From Coraliomargarita sp. (GTDB lineage: Bacteria; Verrucomicrobiota; Verrucomicrobiia; Opitutales; Coraliomargaritaceae), in the NCBI GenBank assembly GCA_965216325.1, contig OZ244160.1, positions 640,001-704,000 on the forward strand: a stretch of 64,000 nt of DNA. Direction: 5' to 3'. Made by a program: the position numbers. The number at the start of each line of letters is the position of its first letter. Within the stretch, counting starts at the first letter, position 1. Shown one piece after another: positions 23,301 to 29,300 of the stretch.

Positions 23301-26300
23301 AAAACGTAGCGCAGGAACGCCATGCTTTGCCAATTATCGCTGAGGTATTGATAGGCTTCCGGGCACTCGGCTTCGAGTTGTTGTAGTGCGGTGCCGACAC
23401 CGAACCAGCCTGGAAGGTAGTAGCGCGATTGGTTCCAGCTGAAGACCCAAGGGATTGCGCGCAGGTCATCCAGTGTTGCTTGGCCGGTGCGGCGAGAAGG
23501 GCGCGAACCGATGCGGCTTTGCTCAATCGCATCGATAGGAGTGGCCTGACGGTAAAACTGCATGAAGCCCTCTGTGCGAAGGAACTCTTTGTAGCGGGTT
23601 TGTGAATACGCCGCGAGTTTCGCCATCAGGTCGTTGAGCTCGGCTGGATCTTCGTCTTTCTGAGCACTGAGCAGGCGTGCACCAAGTGTGCCGGCGACCA
23701 GATACTCGAGATTAGCGGTTGCGGTTTCGATCGTGTTGTATTTCTGGCCAATCACTTCACCTTGTTCGGTCAGACGTAGGCCGCCACGTAGTGCTTGCTT
23801 GGGCACGGCTTCAAGGAAGCGGTGAGTAGGTCCGGCACCACGGCCGACGGTGCCGCCGCGACCGTGGAAGAACTGCATGTCGACACCATAGCGTAGGCCA
23901 ACTGCGACCAGTTCTTGCTGCGCGCGAAGTAGCGCCCATTGGCTCGCGAGAATACCAGTGTCCTTATTGCTGTCACTATAGCCGAGCATGACCATCATGC
24001 GTGGACGCTCTTGTCCTTTCAGACTGCGTTGAGTGACTGGGTGCTTTAAAAACGCATCCGTAATGCCAGGTGCACGTTCCAAGTCTTCGTAGGTTTCGAA
24101 GAGTGGCACGACTGGTAGGGTGGATTGCAGGCCTTCGCCATTGTCGTAAGTAAGGCCGACTTCCTTACACAGTACATAAACGGTGAGTAGGTCAGAGAGC
24201 TCGCGGGTCATACTGACAATCAGTGCGCCCACTGTGTGCGCTCCGTTTACACGCACTTGTTTTGCAACCACGCTGAGTGTCTTACGCACCTCGCTAGCTT
24301 CAGCAGGAAGTGCAGTGGAGTGGTGCGTGAGTGGGCGTGGATTTTCCAACTCTACGTTGAGCAATTCAATACGGGCTGCTTCATCGCGCTTACGGTAGTC
24401 GGCTTCGCTTTCGATATTGGCAGTTTCGAGTAGCTGGCCGAGTGCCTTCTCGTAGTAGGTGCTGTTTTGGCGGATGTCGATACGTGCCAAGTGCAATCCG
24501 ATGCTGTCGACCAGGCGGATCAATGGTGTGACGTAACATTCAACGACCCGTTGTGCGCCTGCATCTGCGAGCCATGCTTCAAGCTTTGCGAGCTGTTGTC
24601 TTGTTTCAGAGGCTGAGGCGTCGTCTAGTTGAGCCGCAATCATGCGGGCGTAGGCACGCCATGGCTCATCGGAAAGGTGCTCTGCGTCGGCTGCCACTAG
24701 GCATTCTTTGAGTGCTTCAGGCGCAGGTGTCTGGATCGTCGTAAAGGCCAATTTGAGCGCGAGGCAATCCAGGCGTTCGCGGACCACGCGAACTGCACTA
24801 TTGCGAAGGGTTTCGAGTGTCCGAGTCGTCGTTTCAGAGGTCACGAAAGGGTGTCCGTCACGGTCGCCGCCGACCCAAGAGCCGAAGTGGAGCAAAGGCT
24901 TTTCCTTACCTTCCAGTGGTGCTGCTTCTGGCCACGCCTGACGCCACGCGTGGCTGAGATTCGCGTCCAGCTTCTGCTGAGTTTCCGGAAGCACCTGTGT
25001 CAGGTAGTAGAGCAGATTGTTCAGCTCGTCGTTAATGTTTGGCTTTTGGCTGAAGAGTTCACCGGTCAGCCACAGGCGCTCAAGTAGTGCGTCGAGCGAC
25101 TGGGTGGATTCGGCAAATTCAAATTCAGTCTCACAACTTTCGCGGGCTTGAAGGAGCTCGACGATGTCGCGGTGGATGCGCAGCACCGACCAGCGTTTCG
25201 CCTCGGTTGGGTGCTTGGTAAAGACGGGTTCGACTTCGACGGTAGCGAGCTTTTCGCGCACCGCATCCGCTTGGATGTCGAGCTGCTTGAGGCGTTTGAA
25301 GTAGTTCGACCAGTTGCCTGCTTCCGCTTCCGGGCCGAGCGCAGCCTCACGCTTGCGGCGCATGGTGTTCGCGACGTGCTCCTCGGCCAGATTCAGCAGT
25401 TGGAAGTAGTAGGAGATCGCCTGCACTTCGGGTGCAGTGAGTGTGTGCTCTAGCTCGGAGTCGAAGCCTTTTTGGAGGAGCTCAGCAGCTTCGGATTCGC
25501 CTTGTTGGCGAAGAAGCTGCACGAGGCGCTCCACGAGTAACTGGTGCGTGGCTTCGACATGGGCAATACCCTGTTCGACGAGTTCTTGGTAAGTAATCTG
25601 ACGGTCCATTCTTAGGATCGAAATAGTGTGTGGTTGGTAGAGGATCTATTGATAAATAGGTAGGACGACTTCGAGACGTGCTACAGCAGTTCCCGTGCTC
25701 AGACGCGGGAGAATGACTGCTGGTCGATCACATTCGACGAACCGCAGCGATTGGCTTAGCGGTCGAGCAGTTTGAGGAATTCCTCGTTGCTCTTGGTCAT
25801 GCTGATGCGGTCGATCATCGCTTCTGCAGCATCTTCGATCTTTTGACCTGCCAGTGCGCGGCGTAGGAACTGGGATGCTTCGAGGCGCTTTCCAGAGAGG
25901 AGTAGCTCTTCGCGGCGTGTGCCGGAGGCATTCAGATTCACTGCAGGCCAGAGTCGGAGCTCGGCGGCCTTGCGGTCGAGCACCATTTCCATGTTACCAG
26001 TGCCCTTGAATTCCTGGAAGATCAGTTCGTCCATCTTGCTGCCGGTCTCAATCAGAGCAGTGGCAATGATGGTCAAGCTACCGCCTTCTTCGCAATTACG
26101 CGCCGCAGAGAACAGCTGACGTGGCTTTTCCAGCGCGCGAATGTCGAGACCACCGGTCATGGTGCGGCCACCTTTGCCGGAGGCAGAGTTGTAGGCGCGG
26201 GAGAGACGGGTGATGGAGTCGAGGAGGAAGACCACGTCTTTGCCCGCTTCGACCAGACGCTTGGCGCGCTCGATCGCGAGTTCGGCCACACGGATGTGGC

Positions 26301-29300
26301 TGGTGATCTCCTCATCGTTGGAGGAGGCGTAAATCTCGGCATCGACGCTACGCTTGAAGTCGGTGACTTCTTCCGGGCGCTCGTCGACCAGCAGCACGAT
26401 CAGGTGGCAGTCGTCTTTGTAGTTTTCGGAAATGCCGTGCGCGATGTCGTGGAGTAGGGTGGTCTTACCGGTACGCGGTGGTGCGACGATTAGACCACGG
26501 GTGCCCTTACCGATTGGGCAGAAAAGATCCATCACGCGAGTGGTGAGGCGGGCGTCCTTGGCTTCGAGGATGAGTTGCTCATCGGGCGCGATCGAAACCA
26601 TTTGCTGGAAGCTGTAGCGGCCCTTGCGCTCTTCCATTGTGAGGCCGTCGACCTTGTCGATGAAGCGGACCTTCGGATTCGGATGGCGTGAGTTGTGGAG
26701 CGCTTTGGCTTCGACGAAGCTGCCTTGCTTGAGCTTGAAGCGCTTGATCAACTCGCGCGGCACGAACGGGTCGCTTGGCTTGGTCTTGCCGTTGCGGCTG
26801 GGGTCGATCAATTGGCCGGTCTTATTCTGGAGGATTTCCAGAATGCCGGATACTTCAACTTCGTTGTCCTTGGGCTTTTCTTCCTGACTCATCTGAGCGT
26901 GACTGCGTGCCGAACGGCACTTTGTGATTCAAATTGGGCAGACGGAATGACTCCTTTGCCACAAAAAAGGGTGCCGAATATGCTCTCGGCGCGGTAGCTA
27001 TCGTGTTGTGCGTGAGGCCGAATTTCTGAATCCGTGCGTCTGTAAGCGCCTTTGCTTACCTGCATCAGTTACGATGAATCAGATTTATGTGGAGCGATCT
27101 GCGCCTGTCAACGCTTAGAATTCGTCTCGGATTTTGGTAGTGCAGGCGAGACGCGACTGCGCTACCTCTTGAAAACCTCAGGTAGAGCTGTTTCACGGTA
27201 GCCAAAAATGTGCCGGAGTTGCTTTTTGACATAAATGCCGTGCGCCAGTGCCCCGAATGGGCCGAAGGGCAGGGCGTAGTGGACGCGGTCAACGAAGCGA
27301 ATGCCGCCCTCAACCTCGGTAATCTCGTGATAGTGGAACCACAATTTGTAGGGCCCGATACGCTGCTCGTCGACGAAGCTATGTTGTTCGCTAATGTGCT
27401 TAATCTCGGTCAGCCAGCGTTGTTTGCCGAGGAAGGGGATGCCAATGCGGTATTCGATGATCAACCCATTGGACATCTCGTCTGGGAGGTCGGAAACAAT
27501 CTCGAAGTCGAGCTCGGGAGGTGTGATGCGGTTCAGGTTCTCGGGCCTGCGAATGAAATCCCAAGCTTCGGAGAGGGTTGTCGGGACTACTTGTTCGTAA
27601 TAGAGTTGGTGCACAGTAGGCATTTATATGGAACGTTTGACCTTGGTCGGACTTACGCTTATACCTTAAAAAGAAAGCGAGTTCAGCCGTAAGGTTTGGC
27701 GCGAGGGCTCGTTTTCTCTACATCTGCTAATGAGAACACTCTACGATATTTTTAAGCACGGGCTGCAGGACCAAGATAACCGCCTGCTCATGGCGTCCTC
27801 TCCTGTGGTGATCATGCATCTGGCGTGTATCGGAGCCTTATTCACCGGATTCAGCTGGGTTGCTGTGGTGACGCTACTACTGACCTATTCGATTCGGGTC
27901 TTTGCACTCACCGCCGGGTTTCATCGCTACTTTTCACACCGTGCGTTCAAGACCAGTCGTGCCTTTCAATTTGTGCTCGCATGGGTGGGCACCTCCTCGG
28001 CTCAGTTGGGCCCGATGTGGTGGGCGGCAAATCATCGTCACCATCACCAGCATTCTGACAAAGAGCCAGACATTCACTCACCAGTCATCAAAGACGCTTT
28101 CTGGGCGCACATTGGCTGGGTTATGTGCAAGGCACACAGCGAGATAAAATACGATCGGATTAAGGATCTCAGCAAGTACCGCGAGTTGCGATTTATTGAC
28201 CGCTTCCACGTCTTACCCGTGCTGTCATTGATCGGGCTGCTATATGCGATTGGTGCGGGGCTGAATACTGCGTTTCCTGCGCTGGGGACCAGTGGCATGC
28301 AACTGGTGATGTGGGGCTTCTTTTTGAGCACTATTCTCGTCTATCACGTCACTTTTTGTGTGAACTCGGTGACTCATATCGTAGGTAAGAAGCGCTTTGT
28401 GACCGATGACGAAAGTCGCAACAGTTGGTGGGTTGCGTTGCTCACCTTTGGTGAGGGCTGGCATAATAATCATCACCGTTGGCCACTCTCCGCCCGTCAA
28501 GGTATGTATTGGTGGGAGTTAGACATTACCTACTACATGCTGCGAGTATTGGAAAAATGTGGTTTGGTTTGGGACCTGAAGGTCTATCCACATAGTATTT
28601 ATGAGGAAGCCGAGCACGGTATTGTTGTGGAGACTTCTTAGAGATGGGATTTTGGCTGCCATTTTTCGTGATTGGCTTTGGGCTGGCAGCCAGTGCGTAT
28701 TTGATTGCTCGTGGCCTTAAGCACATGGCGATTGTGGATCTAATTTGGACTGCTGGGCTCGGTATTGCTGGATTGGTCTATGTGCTAAGCTTAGAGAGTG
28801 CCTCTGGGCGTTCTTGGTGTGTGCTCATCGTGTTGGGATTGTGGTCCTTCCGCTTAAGTTTGCACTTGCTTCGTGATCGAGTGCTTCGTGGCCATGAAGA
28901 TCCGCGTTATCAGGCTTTGGCGAACCACTGGGGCGAGCAGTCGGGGCGCAATTTTTTCGGGCTCTTCCTAGTGCAAATTGTGTTTGTCGCTTTGTTTTTG
29001 CTACCGTTCGGTGTTGCTGCGGAAAACAGGTCTGAACTCTGGCGCGTCAGCGACTTTATCGCGCTGGGCATTGCGGCAGTTGCTTTGCTCGGTGAAACGC
29101 TTGCGGATCGTCAGTTAGCACGCTTTCGGGCTCAGCCTGATAATTCTGGCAAGGTCTGTCGAGAGGGCCTTTGGCGCTATTCGCGCCATCCCAACTACTT
29201 CTTTGAATGGGTTTTCTGGTGGACCTTTGTGGCCTTTGCCTGGGGAGCTGGAAATTGGTGGGTAAGTTTACTCGGACCCGCTGCGATGTATTGTTTCTTA

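Follow-up and report, generated by a model that had tools for sequence, protein, structure and literature searches.

Second copies of Rho, a transcription termination factor, in which the N-terminal domain is missing have been classified as Group B / Type 4 (Moreira et al., 2024, NAR 52:8979, PMC11347177, after D'Heygere 2013). In the sections of that survey used here, the type is defined by the absence of an N-terminal domain, an RNA-binding domain within the first 25 residues, and a Rho ATPase with its catalytic residues; its RNP motifs are described as poorly conserved and its catalytic residues as conserved, hetero-hexamers are proposed for it, and a 377-aa Rho of Coraliomargarita akajimensis is catalogued as T4. 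The sole Rho of Fusobacterium nucleatum is of Type 4 and essential (Moreira et al., 2024), and work cited in the same survey reports that RNA binding is abolished in E. coli Rho without its first 27 residues. Short forms from Opitutus and Lacunisphaera are filed there as 'Rho-like ATPase domain, not functional' (PMC11347177); judged by taxon and length, they most likely belong to the same clade as the protein described below. Among the papers listed in our literature searches, none gave biochemical or genetic data on a short Rho of Verrucomicrobiota.

We analysed a window of 64,000 nucleotides (contig OZ244160.1, positions 640,001 to 704,000) of a Coraliomargarita sp. of the order Opitutales, which carries one of exactly two Rho genes in the genome. 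As an earlier note on this DNA had claimed, the window encodes a short paralogue of 378 aa (hereafter short Rho) and the second gene, 670 kb away at C1:1335942-1337861, a long one of 639 aa from its ATG, with 47% identity to it over the core. Short Rho is 91% identical to the T4 Rho of C. akajimensis, and the two have in common an RNA-binding domain from about residue 14, an ATPase domain that runs to the C-terminus, and the lack of an N-terminal domain. Here too a longer Group A / Type 2 Rho ('Type 2d' in the scheme of that survey) is present in the same genome of the PVC group, short Rho being the second copy, and the short form makes up a separate phylogenetic cluster. There is no essential difference between the two proteins: short Rho is an orthologue in another species and a member of the described Group B / Type 4 lineage, and thus not new. 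The class, the orthologue, the weak RNP motifs and the idea of hetero-hexamers are all in print (Moreira et al., 2024, PMC11347177).

The features of the gene and its upstream region, in window coordinates, are as follows.

25756..26892, minus strand: coding region for short Rho, 378 aa plus stop codon (open reading frame, Pfam, NCBIfam, PDB alignment)
26863..26892, minus strand: residues 1-10, variable and predicted disordered, with nothing replacing the helix bundle (model pLDDT and relatives)
26644..26862, minus strand: OB-fold RNA-binding domain, residues 11-83 (Pfam, AlphaFold2 model, superposition, conservation)
26803..26826, minus strand: RNP1-equivalent 'NKTGQLID', residues 23-30 (alignment)
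26761..26772, minus strand: RNP2-equivalent 'DPFV', residues 41-44 (alignment)
26662..26688, minus strand: RNP3-equivalent 'RHPNPKVRF', residues 69-77 (alignment)
25924..26541, minus strand: RecA-type ATPase domain, residues 118-323 (Pfam, AlphaFold2 model)
26461..26484, minus strand: Walker A 'APPRTGKT', residues 137-144, with K143/T144 equivalent to E. coli K184/T185 (alignment)
26377..26382, minus strand: E171, at the position of the catalytic Glu (E211), and R172, at that of the Arg valve (R212) (alignment)
26218..26220, minus strand: D225, equivalent to the Walker B aspartate (D265) (alignment)
26131..26193, minus strand: Q-loop region of the secondary RNA site, residues 234-254, with R243 equivalent to K283 and T246 to T286 (alignment)
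26035..26049, minus strand: R-loop 'ETGSK', residues 282-286, with K286 equivalent to K326 (alignment)
25915..25917, minus strand: R326, equivalent to the arginine finger (R366) (alignment)
27106..27111, minus strand: TTGACA resembling a -35 box, some 215 nt upstream of the short Rho ATG (aligned family-level loci)
26963..26990, minus strand: terminator-like hairpin followed by a U-run, within the inferred 5' leader (sequence, relatives compared)

The reading frame starts with an ATG and spans 390 aa from stop to stop, which leaves upstream room for only 12 more codons and therefore for no concealed N-terminal part. Short Rho scores 459 bits against NCBIfam NF006886 'transcription termination factor Rho' (cut-off 315) and 449.8 against the older model TIGR00767, under its cut-off of 509.45. 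In Pfam, Rho_RNA_bind matches residues 14-83 (33.1 bits, cut-off 27) and ATP-synt_ab matches residues 118-323, so that an OB-fold RNA-binding domain precedes a RecA-type ATPase domain, as expected of a Rho. The model NF041509 'paralog_Rho2: transcription termination factor Rho, short form' also begins at the OB fold (360 positions, query residues 14-374); at 405 bits against a cut-off of 628, short Rho is not a member, and its score is exceeded by that of long Rho from the same genome (420 bits).

PDB alignments pair short Rho with residues 48-418 of E. coli Rho (1pv4, 9.8e-98) and 240-609 of M. tuberculosis Rho (7oqh, 2.1e-101). A confident Rho-like fold is predicted by an AlphaFold2 model from a 72-sequence alignment (pLDDT 90.7, pTM 0.89), which superposes on solved Rho protomers with a TM of 0.93 and an rmsd of 1.9 A over 372 columns. 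In this model about 10 disordered residues (mean pLDDT 55 for residues 1-10, below 50 for residues 1-4), in a stretch that varies between relatives, precede an OB fold from residue 11 onward with strands at 11-20, 26-29, 59-67 and 70-81 and a helix at 46-51. As claimed before, the N-terminal three-helix bundle is absent, the alignment with E. coli Rho beginning at residue 48; Pfam Rho_N has no match in the whole genome. The gene is a real, intact second Rho copy without the usual N-terminal RNA-capture parts. Against canonical Rho of the E. coli type (1pv4, 3ice, 8q3n), it shares the OB fold and RecA ATPase (46% identity) and every motor and secondary-site residue, but lacks residues 1-47, differs in the primary RNA site, and has K181 replaced by R, as does every Verrucomicrobiota Rho compared.

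In E. coli Rho, the motor relies on K184/T185 of Walker A, the catalytic E211, the Arg valve R212, D265 of Walker B and the Arg finger R366, and the secondary RNA site on K283 and T286 of the Q-loop and K326 of the R-loop. Across the 125 Rho sequences compared, the equivalents of K184, T185, E211, R212, D265, R269 and R366 show no variation, and that of T323 is T in 124. At the secondary site short Rho has R243, T246 and K286; across the short clade the K283 equivalent is K/R in 61 of 62 sequences and the K326 equivalent in all 62. Judged by these residues, and in agreement with the earlier description of a complete ATPase/secondary-site half, short Rho has a complete Rho motor with Walker A and B, catalytic Glu, Arg valve, Arg finger, Q-loop and R-loop.

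For the primary RNA site, or pyrimidine pocket, we take F62, F64, R66, D78, Y80, E108 and Y110 of E. coli Rho to be the residues concerned. 'NKTGQLID' of short Rho aligns opposite 'DGFGFLRS' in E. coli and 'NYAFVR' in M. tuberculosis, which changes F62 to T, F64 to Q and R66 to I and leaves RNP1 without aromatic residues, as had been noted. At RNP2, D78 is retained and Y80 conservatively replaced by F (D in 59 and F in 55 of the 62 short-clade sequences), and at RNP3 'RHPNPKVRF' takes the place of the canonical KERFFAL, so that E108 and Y110 have no equivalents. Short Rho thus reads T, Q, I, D, F, P/H and gap/N where a canonical pocket would be, with five of eight primary-site residues substituted. 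The earlier note set this against a canonical long copy, a contrast that is incomplete: among 21 long Opitutales copies, R66 is found in none, D78 in three and F64 in two, and neither copy therefore has a canonical pyrimidine pocket. The extension of about 265 residues that it described on long Rho includes a helix bundle; alignment pairs E. coli Rho residues 5-415 with the final 452 residues of the long protein.

Instead of the canonical pocket, the short clade has its own conserved OB surface. At least 90% conservation is reached at 15 of 71 OB positions (2 of 71 in the long clade), K/R makes up at least 70% at 12 positions (2 in the long clade), and the median net charge of the OB domain is +5, whereas canonical Rho has 0 and the long clade -1. 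When 15 genomes are compared in 105 pairs, the OB domain of the short copy reaches a median identity of 47.2% and that of the long copy 37.5%, with the short copy ahead in 61 pairs; the ATPase medians are 66.7% and 75.1%, respectively. By these measures, the OB domain of the short copy is better conserved than that of the long one, and strongly basic.

The idea that short Rho is an Opitutales invention is contradicted by the tree, in which it falls within an older clade B, split from clade A with FastTree supports of 0.98 and 0.93 and an SH-aLRT of 100. Clade B also contains one of the two Rho copies from other orders of the class Verrucomicrobiae and, among 134 genomes of other classes, the copies of 3. 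Inside Opitutales the short clade is monophyletic (support 0.956, SH-aLRT 99). By the trees, the paralogue predates Opitutales. The clade-B Rho of the other orders is the same paralogue lineage (e.g., Chthoniobacterales records with 54-55% identity) and, like short Rho, has no detectable helix bundle and a replaced RNP3 motif. Unlike short Rho, it retains GFGFLR (F/Y62 and F/Y64 in 9 of 9, R66 in 9 of 9) and is extended at its N-terminus by a basic stretch (median 231 aa, net charge +9), where Opitutales short Rho has only about 16 residues ahead of the OB fold. We infer that a duplication dating back at least to the origin of the class gave rise to two Rho lineages, and that lineage B shed the helix bundle early, keeping GFGFLR and a basic N-terminal extension outside Opitutales. 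In Opitutales, it would then have dropped the extension and exchanged the aromatic/arginine pocket (F62, F64, R66, E108/Y110) for a clade-specific, strongly basic OB surface.

Among 87 other Opitutales genomes, each at least 90% complete, 77 have two Rho matches with the short type as the best (both types where verified), so that the pairing claimed for every Opitutales genome sampled before holds for most of the order but not all. Six have the long type only, five of these being genomes of 0.8-1.1 Mb and the sixth having 8 kb outside the sequence searched; one (G167, 100% complete) has the short type only, and no Rho at all was found in three. The short copy is therefore dispensable in the five reduced genomes; 6 of 11 genomes of at most 1.1 Mb (about 1 Mb) retain both types, and the long copy is the one kept in the most reduced genomes. 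Short-type identity across Opitutales is 53-88%, a wider range than the 64-88% given before. A single Rho, reported for most other Verrucomicrobiota, is indeed the rule outside the class (129 of 134 genomes), but within it 24 of 29 genomes of other orders have two matches.

No short-type match contains a stop codon, and short Rho is under strong purifying constraint across the order. It is very improbable that the gene is decaying, arose by a recent duplication or was acquired horizontally, as its below-normal length and its RNA-binding domain, with a marginal Pfam score here and missed by Pfam in 6 of 72 clade-B members, might suggest. Such an origin is contradicted by the intact frames of all 62 short-clade sequences examined, the invariant motor residues and the monophyly of the short clade, as vertical descent predicts. 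The GC content of the gene resembles that of its flanks, and in a library of 1.84 billion representatives scores drop by about 100 bits beyond the clade, so that no close foreign donor is visible.

We predict, at roughly even chances, that short Rho is a functional Group B / Type 4 Rho acting as an autonomous RNA translocase with altered RNA loading. The genome with the short type only (G167) is compatible with autonomy, for which the sole, essential Type 4 Rho of F. nucleatum (Moreira et al., 2024) offers a precedent; the near-obligate co-occurrence, with short Rho lacking a detectable long partner in just 1 of 87 genomes, also fits dependence on the long copy. Solo RNA capture by short Rho is not assured, given the five of eight substituted primary-site residues and the effect of the 27-residue deletion cited for E. 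coli Rho. Short Rho may instead be a subunit of mixed hexamers with long Rho, an idea already in print (Moreira et al., 2024, PMC11347177) that we rate as rather unlikely, in which short subunits would dilute or tune how many helix bundles and disordered tails a ring carries and long subunits would capture RNA in trans. It would account for the pairing of the two types in 77 of 87 genomes, for the identity in both paralogues of the ATP-site residues across the subunit interface (Arg finger, Arg valve, Walker motifs), and for one genome (G017) in which the two genes lie 3.5 kb apart. In the present genome, however, 670 kb separate the two genes, and the short one carries its own promoter-like elements; the paralogues parted before the class split into its orders, and share only 45% identity in the core (range 40-48%) and 25% in the OB domain that makes the crown contacts. 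A conserved basic OB surface would also be unexpected in a passive filler subunit, and G167 does without the long type.

The TTGACA box upstream of short Rho is aligned at 10 of 15 family-level loci and suggests a promoter of its own with a leader of about 180 nt; the hairpin and U-run in this leader, which show no clear conservation among the relatives compared, may form an attenuator. Four RNA-library contigs from one sample of one study (154-172 nt, 0-2 mismatches) lie wholly within the gene and hint weakly at expression; contaminating DNA could be their source. At 32 of 62 loci, short Rho is followed on the same strand by a conserved neighbour of about 590 aa. This neighbour would suit a third reading, improbable in our view, in which short Rho has departed from general termination to R-loop removal, RNA decay or remodelling, or regulation or antagonism of long Rho through a specific RNA or protein partner bound by its rebuilt OB surface; but the neighbour is unlinked to short Rho in this genome and matches no known family, and nothing points to any particular partner. 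The same reading fits the loss of the canonical pocket alongside conservation of other clade-specific OB residues, the somewhat faster evolution of the ATPase of the short copy and its dispensability in five reduced genomes, while the retained secondary-site loops for RNA threading speak against it.

Relative to the sections of Moreira et al. (2024) used here, our analysis adds the order-wide retention of short Rho, the older clade B with its extension-bearing relatives, the finding that the long copy, too, has lost R66, F64 and D78, and the basic OB surface. As an autonomous translocase, short Rho would build its own hexameric ring, its rebuilt OB crown would capture RNA electrostatically with a relaxed or different sequence preference, and the RNA would then be threaded and translocated by the ordinary Rho mechanism. 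It would thereby provide a second termination factor or RNA translocase whose target range or regulation may be unlike that of long Rho, which by contrast has retained the helix bundle and a long disordered extension.

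The 3.06-Mb, one-contig genome of Coraliomargarita sp. contains exactly two Rho genes, one encoding a long Rho of 639 aa (C1:1335942-1337861) and the other a short Rho located in the window:

25756..26892, minus strand: short rho, an open reading frame of 378 aa with an ATG start

The cores of the two proteins are 47% identical. The stop-to-stop frame of the short Rho is merely 390 aa, so that no N-terminal part is hidden upstream of its start. It scored 459 bits against NCBIfam NF006886 (cut-off 315), and Pfam placed Rho_RNA_bind at residues 14-83 and ATP-synt_ab at residues 118-323. 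Aligned with solved structures, it matched residues 48-418 of E. coli Rho (1pv4, E = 9.8e-98) and residues 240-609 of M. tuberculosis Rho. An AlphaFold2 model built on an alignment of 72 clade members (mean pLDDT 90.7, pTM 0.89) predicts about 10 disordered residues, followed directly by the five-stranded fold of the RNA-binding (OB) domain and then by the ATPase; in Foldseek, this model superposed on solved Rho protomers with a TM score of 0.93 and an rmsd of 1.9 Å over 372 columns. The reading frame, family scores, alignments and model thus confirm the claim of the earlier note that a short second Rho starting at the OB fold exists beside the long one. The family NF041509 ("paralog_Rho2, short form") was considered and set aside, as the short Rho reached 405 bits against it, below both the 420 bits of the long Rho and the cut-off of 628.

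We surveyed genomes that were each at least 90% complete, including 87 other Opitutales. Two Rho matches, with the short type as the best, were found in 77 of these 87. Identity was 53-88% for the short-type matches (open frames 375-550 aa) and 44-52% for the long-type matches (open frames 549-867 aa). The earlier note had placed a short orthologue beside a long Rho in every Opitutales genome sampled, with 64-88% identity; co-occurrence holds for the large majority but fails in 10 of the 87, and the identity range is wider than was claimed. Among the exceptions, six genomes have the long type alone (five are 0.8-1.1 Mb in size, and the sixth was searched minus 8 kb of its sequence), and one (G167; 100% complete, 3.6 Mb, 30 contigs) has the short type alone. 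In G167 a curated Rho model recovered the short type at 426.6 bits and no long type, which reflects either an assembly gap or a lineage that depends on the short Rho only. With the same model, no Rho of either type was found in the remaining three genomes (1.8-2.3 Mb, 95-99% complete, one in only 8 contigs), where the best scores were about 85 bits from other ATPases, or nothing. Of the 11 Opitutales genomes of 1.1 Mb or less, six carry both types, five the long type alone and none the short type alone. In one 0.9-Mb genome (G017, C2:69516-75219), the two rho genes, one of each type, are divergent and separated by only 3.5 kb.

The suggestion that most other Verrucomicrobiota have one Rho applies outside the class Verrucomicrobiae, where 129 of 134 genomes gave one match, three gave two and two gave none, but not inside it, as two matches were found in 24 of 29 genomes from its other orders. 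Named public records of the short type come from Coraliomargaritaceae, Puniceicoccaceae, Opitutaceae, Pelagicoccus and gut genera, and the next tier among such records, at 54-55% identity, is formed by Chthoniobacterales.

A FastTree phylogeny, computed under LG+gamma from 125 sequences and 363 core columns and rooted at the midpoint, divides Verrucomicrobiota Rho into two clades. All single-copy Rho of other classes fall into clade A, together with the 21 Opitutales long forms; each of the nine two-copy genomes of other orders contributes one of its copies to this clade. Their second copies (frames 464-755 aa) are found in clade B (support 0.979), along with the 62 Opitutales short forms and copies of three genomes belonging to other classes. 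After addition of 150 representatives, taken at 50% identity from a library of 1.84 billion proteins, clade B stayed together (support 0.932, 88 tips) and the Opitutales short forms were monophyletic (support 0.956); few of the representatives are named, and one basal B-like cluster among them carries a Planctomycetota label. In a fast IQ-TREE search limited to 37 of the original 125 sequences, clade B received an SH-aLRT value of 100 and the short clade one of 99. For one clade-B copy of another order, the alignment with E. coli Rho begins at residue 47 of the latter; clade-B copies of other orders have a basic extension ahead of the OB fold, with a median length of 231 aa and a net charge of +9, where the Opitutales short forms have about 16 residues. 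From the trees, the start at residue 47 and the extension pattern, we infer the following order of events: an old duplication would have yielded two Rho lineages; lineage B would have dropped the helix bundle early; and the Opitutales members of lineage B would later have shed both the extension and the GFGFLR motif. The GC content of the short Rho gene resembles that of the flanking DNA. On GC content, intact frames, trees and the library search, we dismissed a pseudogene or decaying copy and a horizontal or recent transfer.

The residues of the short Rho were compared in E. coli numbering, read off the pairwise PDB alignment (the displayed chain runs three higher than 1pv4). Among the positions of the motor and secondary site of E. 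coli Rho (K184, T185, E211, R212, D265, R269, T323 and R366), all but T323 are invariant in the 125 aligned Verrucomicrobiota Rho sequences, and T323 is T in 124 of them; the Q-loop and R-loop lysine positions are occupied by K or R. The primary pyrimidine pocket of E. coli Rho comprises F62, F64, R66, D78, Y80, E108 and Y110. The short Rho has T at the F62 position, Q at F64, I at R66 and F at Y80; D78 is retained, and HPNP stands where E. coli Rho has the E108-Y110 stretch. No aromatic residue occurs between GILEIL and DPFV, so that the loss of aromatics from RNP1, a primary RNA-site motif, is independent of alignment register. The motif of the short clade reads NK-[TS]GQL[LI]DP.RNGKT.P.DPFVPRELI.RFKLK ... 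R[FH]PNPKV.

The long Rho was described in the earlier note as having a canonical core, and its pocket, too, turned out to be remodelled. Among 21 Opitutales long forms, the R66 position is V, T, C or L (R in 0/21), the D78 position is mostly S (D in 3/21) and the F64 position is mostly L, C or V (F in 2/21); the Y110 position is C in the long Rho of Coraliomargarita sp. The last 452 residues of this protein, whose gene is L002:1492-3411 (minus strand) in the extracted long-Rho locus, match E. coli Rho residues 5-415 (E = 4.6e-120, with high posterior probabilities), which means that it has the helix bundle, pairing with E. coli residues 5-47, though Pfam Rho_N misses it. Rho_N gave no match genome-wide, and hence no stand-alone helix-bundle protein was found that might complement the short Rho in trans, a weak piece of evidence since the model overlooks the bundle of the long Rho too. 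The long Rho of Coraliomargarita akajimensis and Opitutus terrae is assigned to Type 2d, with no N-terminal domain detected, in a published survey (Moreira et al., 2024; PMC11347177). If those two proteins resemble the long Rho here, Type 2d under-detects N-terminal domains. Elsewhere in the Verrucomicrobiae, the clade-A copy of two-copy genomes has F or Y at the F64 position in 0/9 cases, the clade-B copies retain GFGFLR with RNP3, another primary RNA-site motif, replaced, and single-copy genomes keep the canonical YGFLR (3/3). Read from these sequences, the pocket patterns of the clade-A and clade-B copies are complementary.

Constraint on the two paralogues was compared in the same 15 genomes (105 genome pairs). 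In the OB domain, median identity was 47.2% for the short and 37.5% for the long form (short higher in 61/105 pairs), whereas in the ATPase it was 66.7% and 75.1%, respectively (short higher in 7/105 pairs). Across 71 OB columns, positions conserved at 90% or more numbered 15 in the short clade, 2 in the long clade and 26 in canonical single-copy Rho, and positions with at least 70% K or R numbered 12, 2 and 9, the short-clade counts being inflated by a larger sample with closer relatives, for which the paired comparison controls. The median net charge of the OB domain is +5 in the short clade, 0 in canonical Rho and -1 in the long clade; the conserved basic OB residues of the short Rho include K24, R33, K36, R46, K53, K55 and K74. 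We conclude that the short Rho is a genuine Rho paralogue under constraint and belongs to a kind already published. The reading that we favor, at about even confidence, is that it acts as an autonomous Rho-type ring translocase beside the long Rho, its RNA-loading crown predicted from sequence and model to be rebuilt as a basic OB surface. Hetero-hexamers of two Rho types are regarded as possible in the survey (PMC11347177), and mixed rings of short and long Rho seem to us rather unlikely here.

The surroundings of the short rho gene include the following features:

22952-25609, minus strand: downstream neighbor of 885 aa, which we take from the look of its translation to be phosphoenolpyruvate carboxylase (ppc)
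27162-27623, minus strand: upstream neighbor of 153 aa with no Pfam match
27111..27106, minus strand: TTGACA box about 215 nt 5' of the ATG, aligned in 10 of 15 family-level loci
26990..26963, minus strand: terminator-like hairpin and U-run within the inferred leader
26920..26907, minus strand: GUGCCG-UUCG-CGGCAC hairpin, 14 nt before the ATG

Among 62 short-clade loci, these neighbors recur in six, all of the same family, and ppc lies downstream of short rho in Coraliomargarita sp. alone. In 32 of the 62 loci (among L007-L101), spanning many families, the gene directly 3' of short rho and co-oriented with it encodes a Verrucomicrobiota-specific hypothetical protein of about 590 aa; in Coraliomargarita sp. 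this gene is unlinked (C1:1030541-1032061). This protein has no Pfam or NCBIfam family, and its Atlas matches were Verrucomicrobiota hypothetical proteins only, plus a weak DUF2264 lead. A promoter scan found no sigma-70 consensus promoter on the short rho strand, the TTGACA box having come from the alignment of relatives. We infer a 5' leader of about 180 nt (region 26893-27161, minus strand), which could be an attenuator; its hairpins show no clear conservation in relatives, and an Rfam scan of 25400-27700 returned a chance-level RsmV alone (15 bits, gathering score 100). Four RNA-seq contigs (154-172 nt, 0-2 mismatches) from three runs of one sample (X1-X3) lie wholly within short rho, a weak hint of its transcription; in these small-share runs, uncovered stretches of the gene are uninformative. 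A further RNA run, X8, left short rho without cover. That the short Rho has a role outside termination, or a regulatory one, appears to us quite improbable.

Much of this has precedent. The survey by Moreira et al. (2024; PMC11347177) counts at least two rho genes in 116 genomes, 30 of them from the PVC group, calls the duplication ancient, and defines a Type 4 Rho without an N-terminal domain. Its Table S2 lists for C. akajimensis a 554-aa Type 2d and a 377-aa Type 4 Rho, the latter with an RNA-binding domain at 14-85 and an ATPase at 91-375; this 377-aa protein is 91% identical to the short Rho. Proteins of Opitutus terrae (412 aa) and Lacunisphaera limnophila (391 aa) are labeled there as "Rho-like ATPase domain" and considered non-functional. 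Judged by taxon and length, the two most likely belong to the short clade. Detection of the RNA-binding domain is marginal, as Pfam sees it in 66 of 72 clade-B members. A 2025 review (PMC12360218), in the parts consulted, uses "paralog" for NusG/RfaH only, and our full-text literature search found, among the papers listed, no experimental study of such a short Rho or of a diverged Rho pair. Novelty is low for the gene and its class, and moderate for neither Opitutales Rho keeping the canonical pocket; the finding is of modest value, since published work already covers the gene class, an orthologue that is nearly identical and the leading hypotheses. What is added here is the order-wide retention, which extends to genomes of about 1 Mb, an earlier origin for the paralogue, and the absence of the canonical pocket from both Opitutales copies.

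A broader proposal, which we offer tentatively and think doubtful as a whole, is that Opitutales rely on two Rho rings for termination, both without the canonical pyrimidine-dinucleotide pocket, RNA capture having been partitioned after the duplication. For this capture, the long copy would lean on the helix bundle and the disordered extension, its OB domain being left to drift. The short copy, having lost all N-terminal appendages, would have its OB crown rebuilt in a conserved and strongly basic form, and would serve as a specialised terminator with loading rules unlike the C-rich "rut" rule; its own long leader with the terminator-like hairpin might provide control.

Factor-dependent termination in bacteria is mainly the work of Rho, whose choice of RNA has so far been loosely defined. 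If the two-ring proposal is true, a related pattern elsewhere in the class, the loss of F64 from the clade-A copy in 9/9 two-copy and 0/3 single-copy genomes, with GFGFLR kept in the clade-B copy, would clearly represent sub-functionalisation of an essential ring motor. C. akajimensis is a cultured relative in which the question is testable, and lineages with two diverged Rho proteins, one reduced to an OB fold and a motor, are natural experiments that reveal what is indispensable in the loading module.
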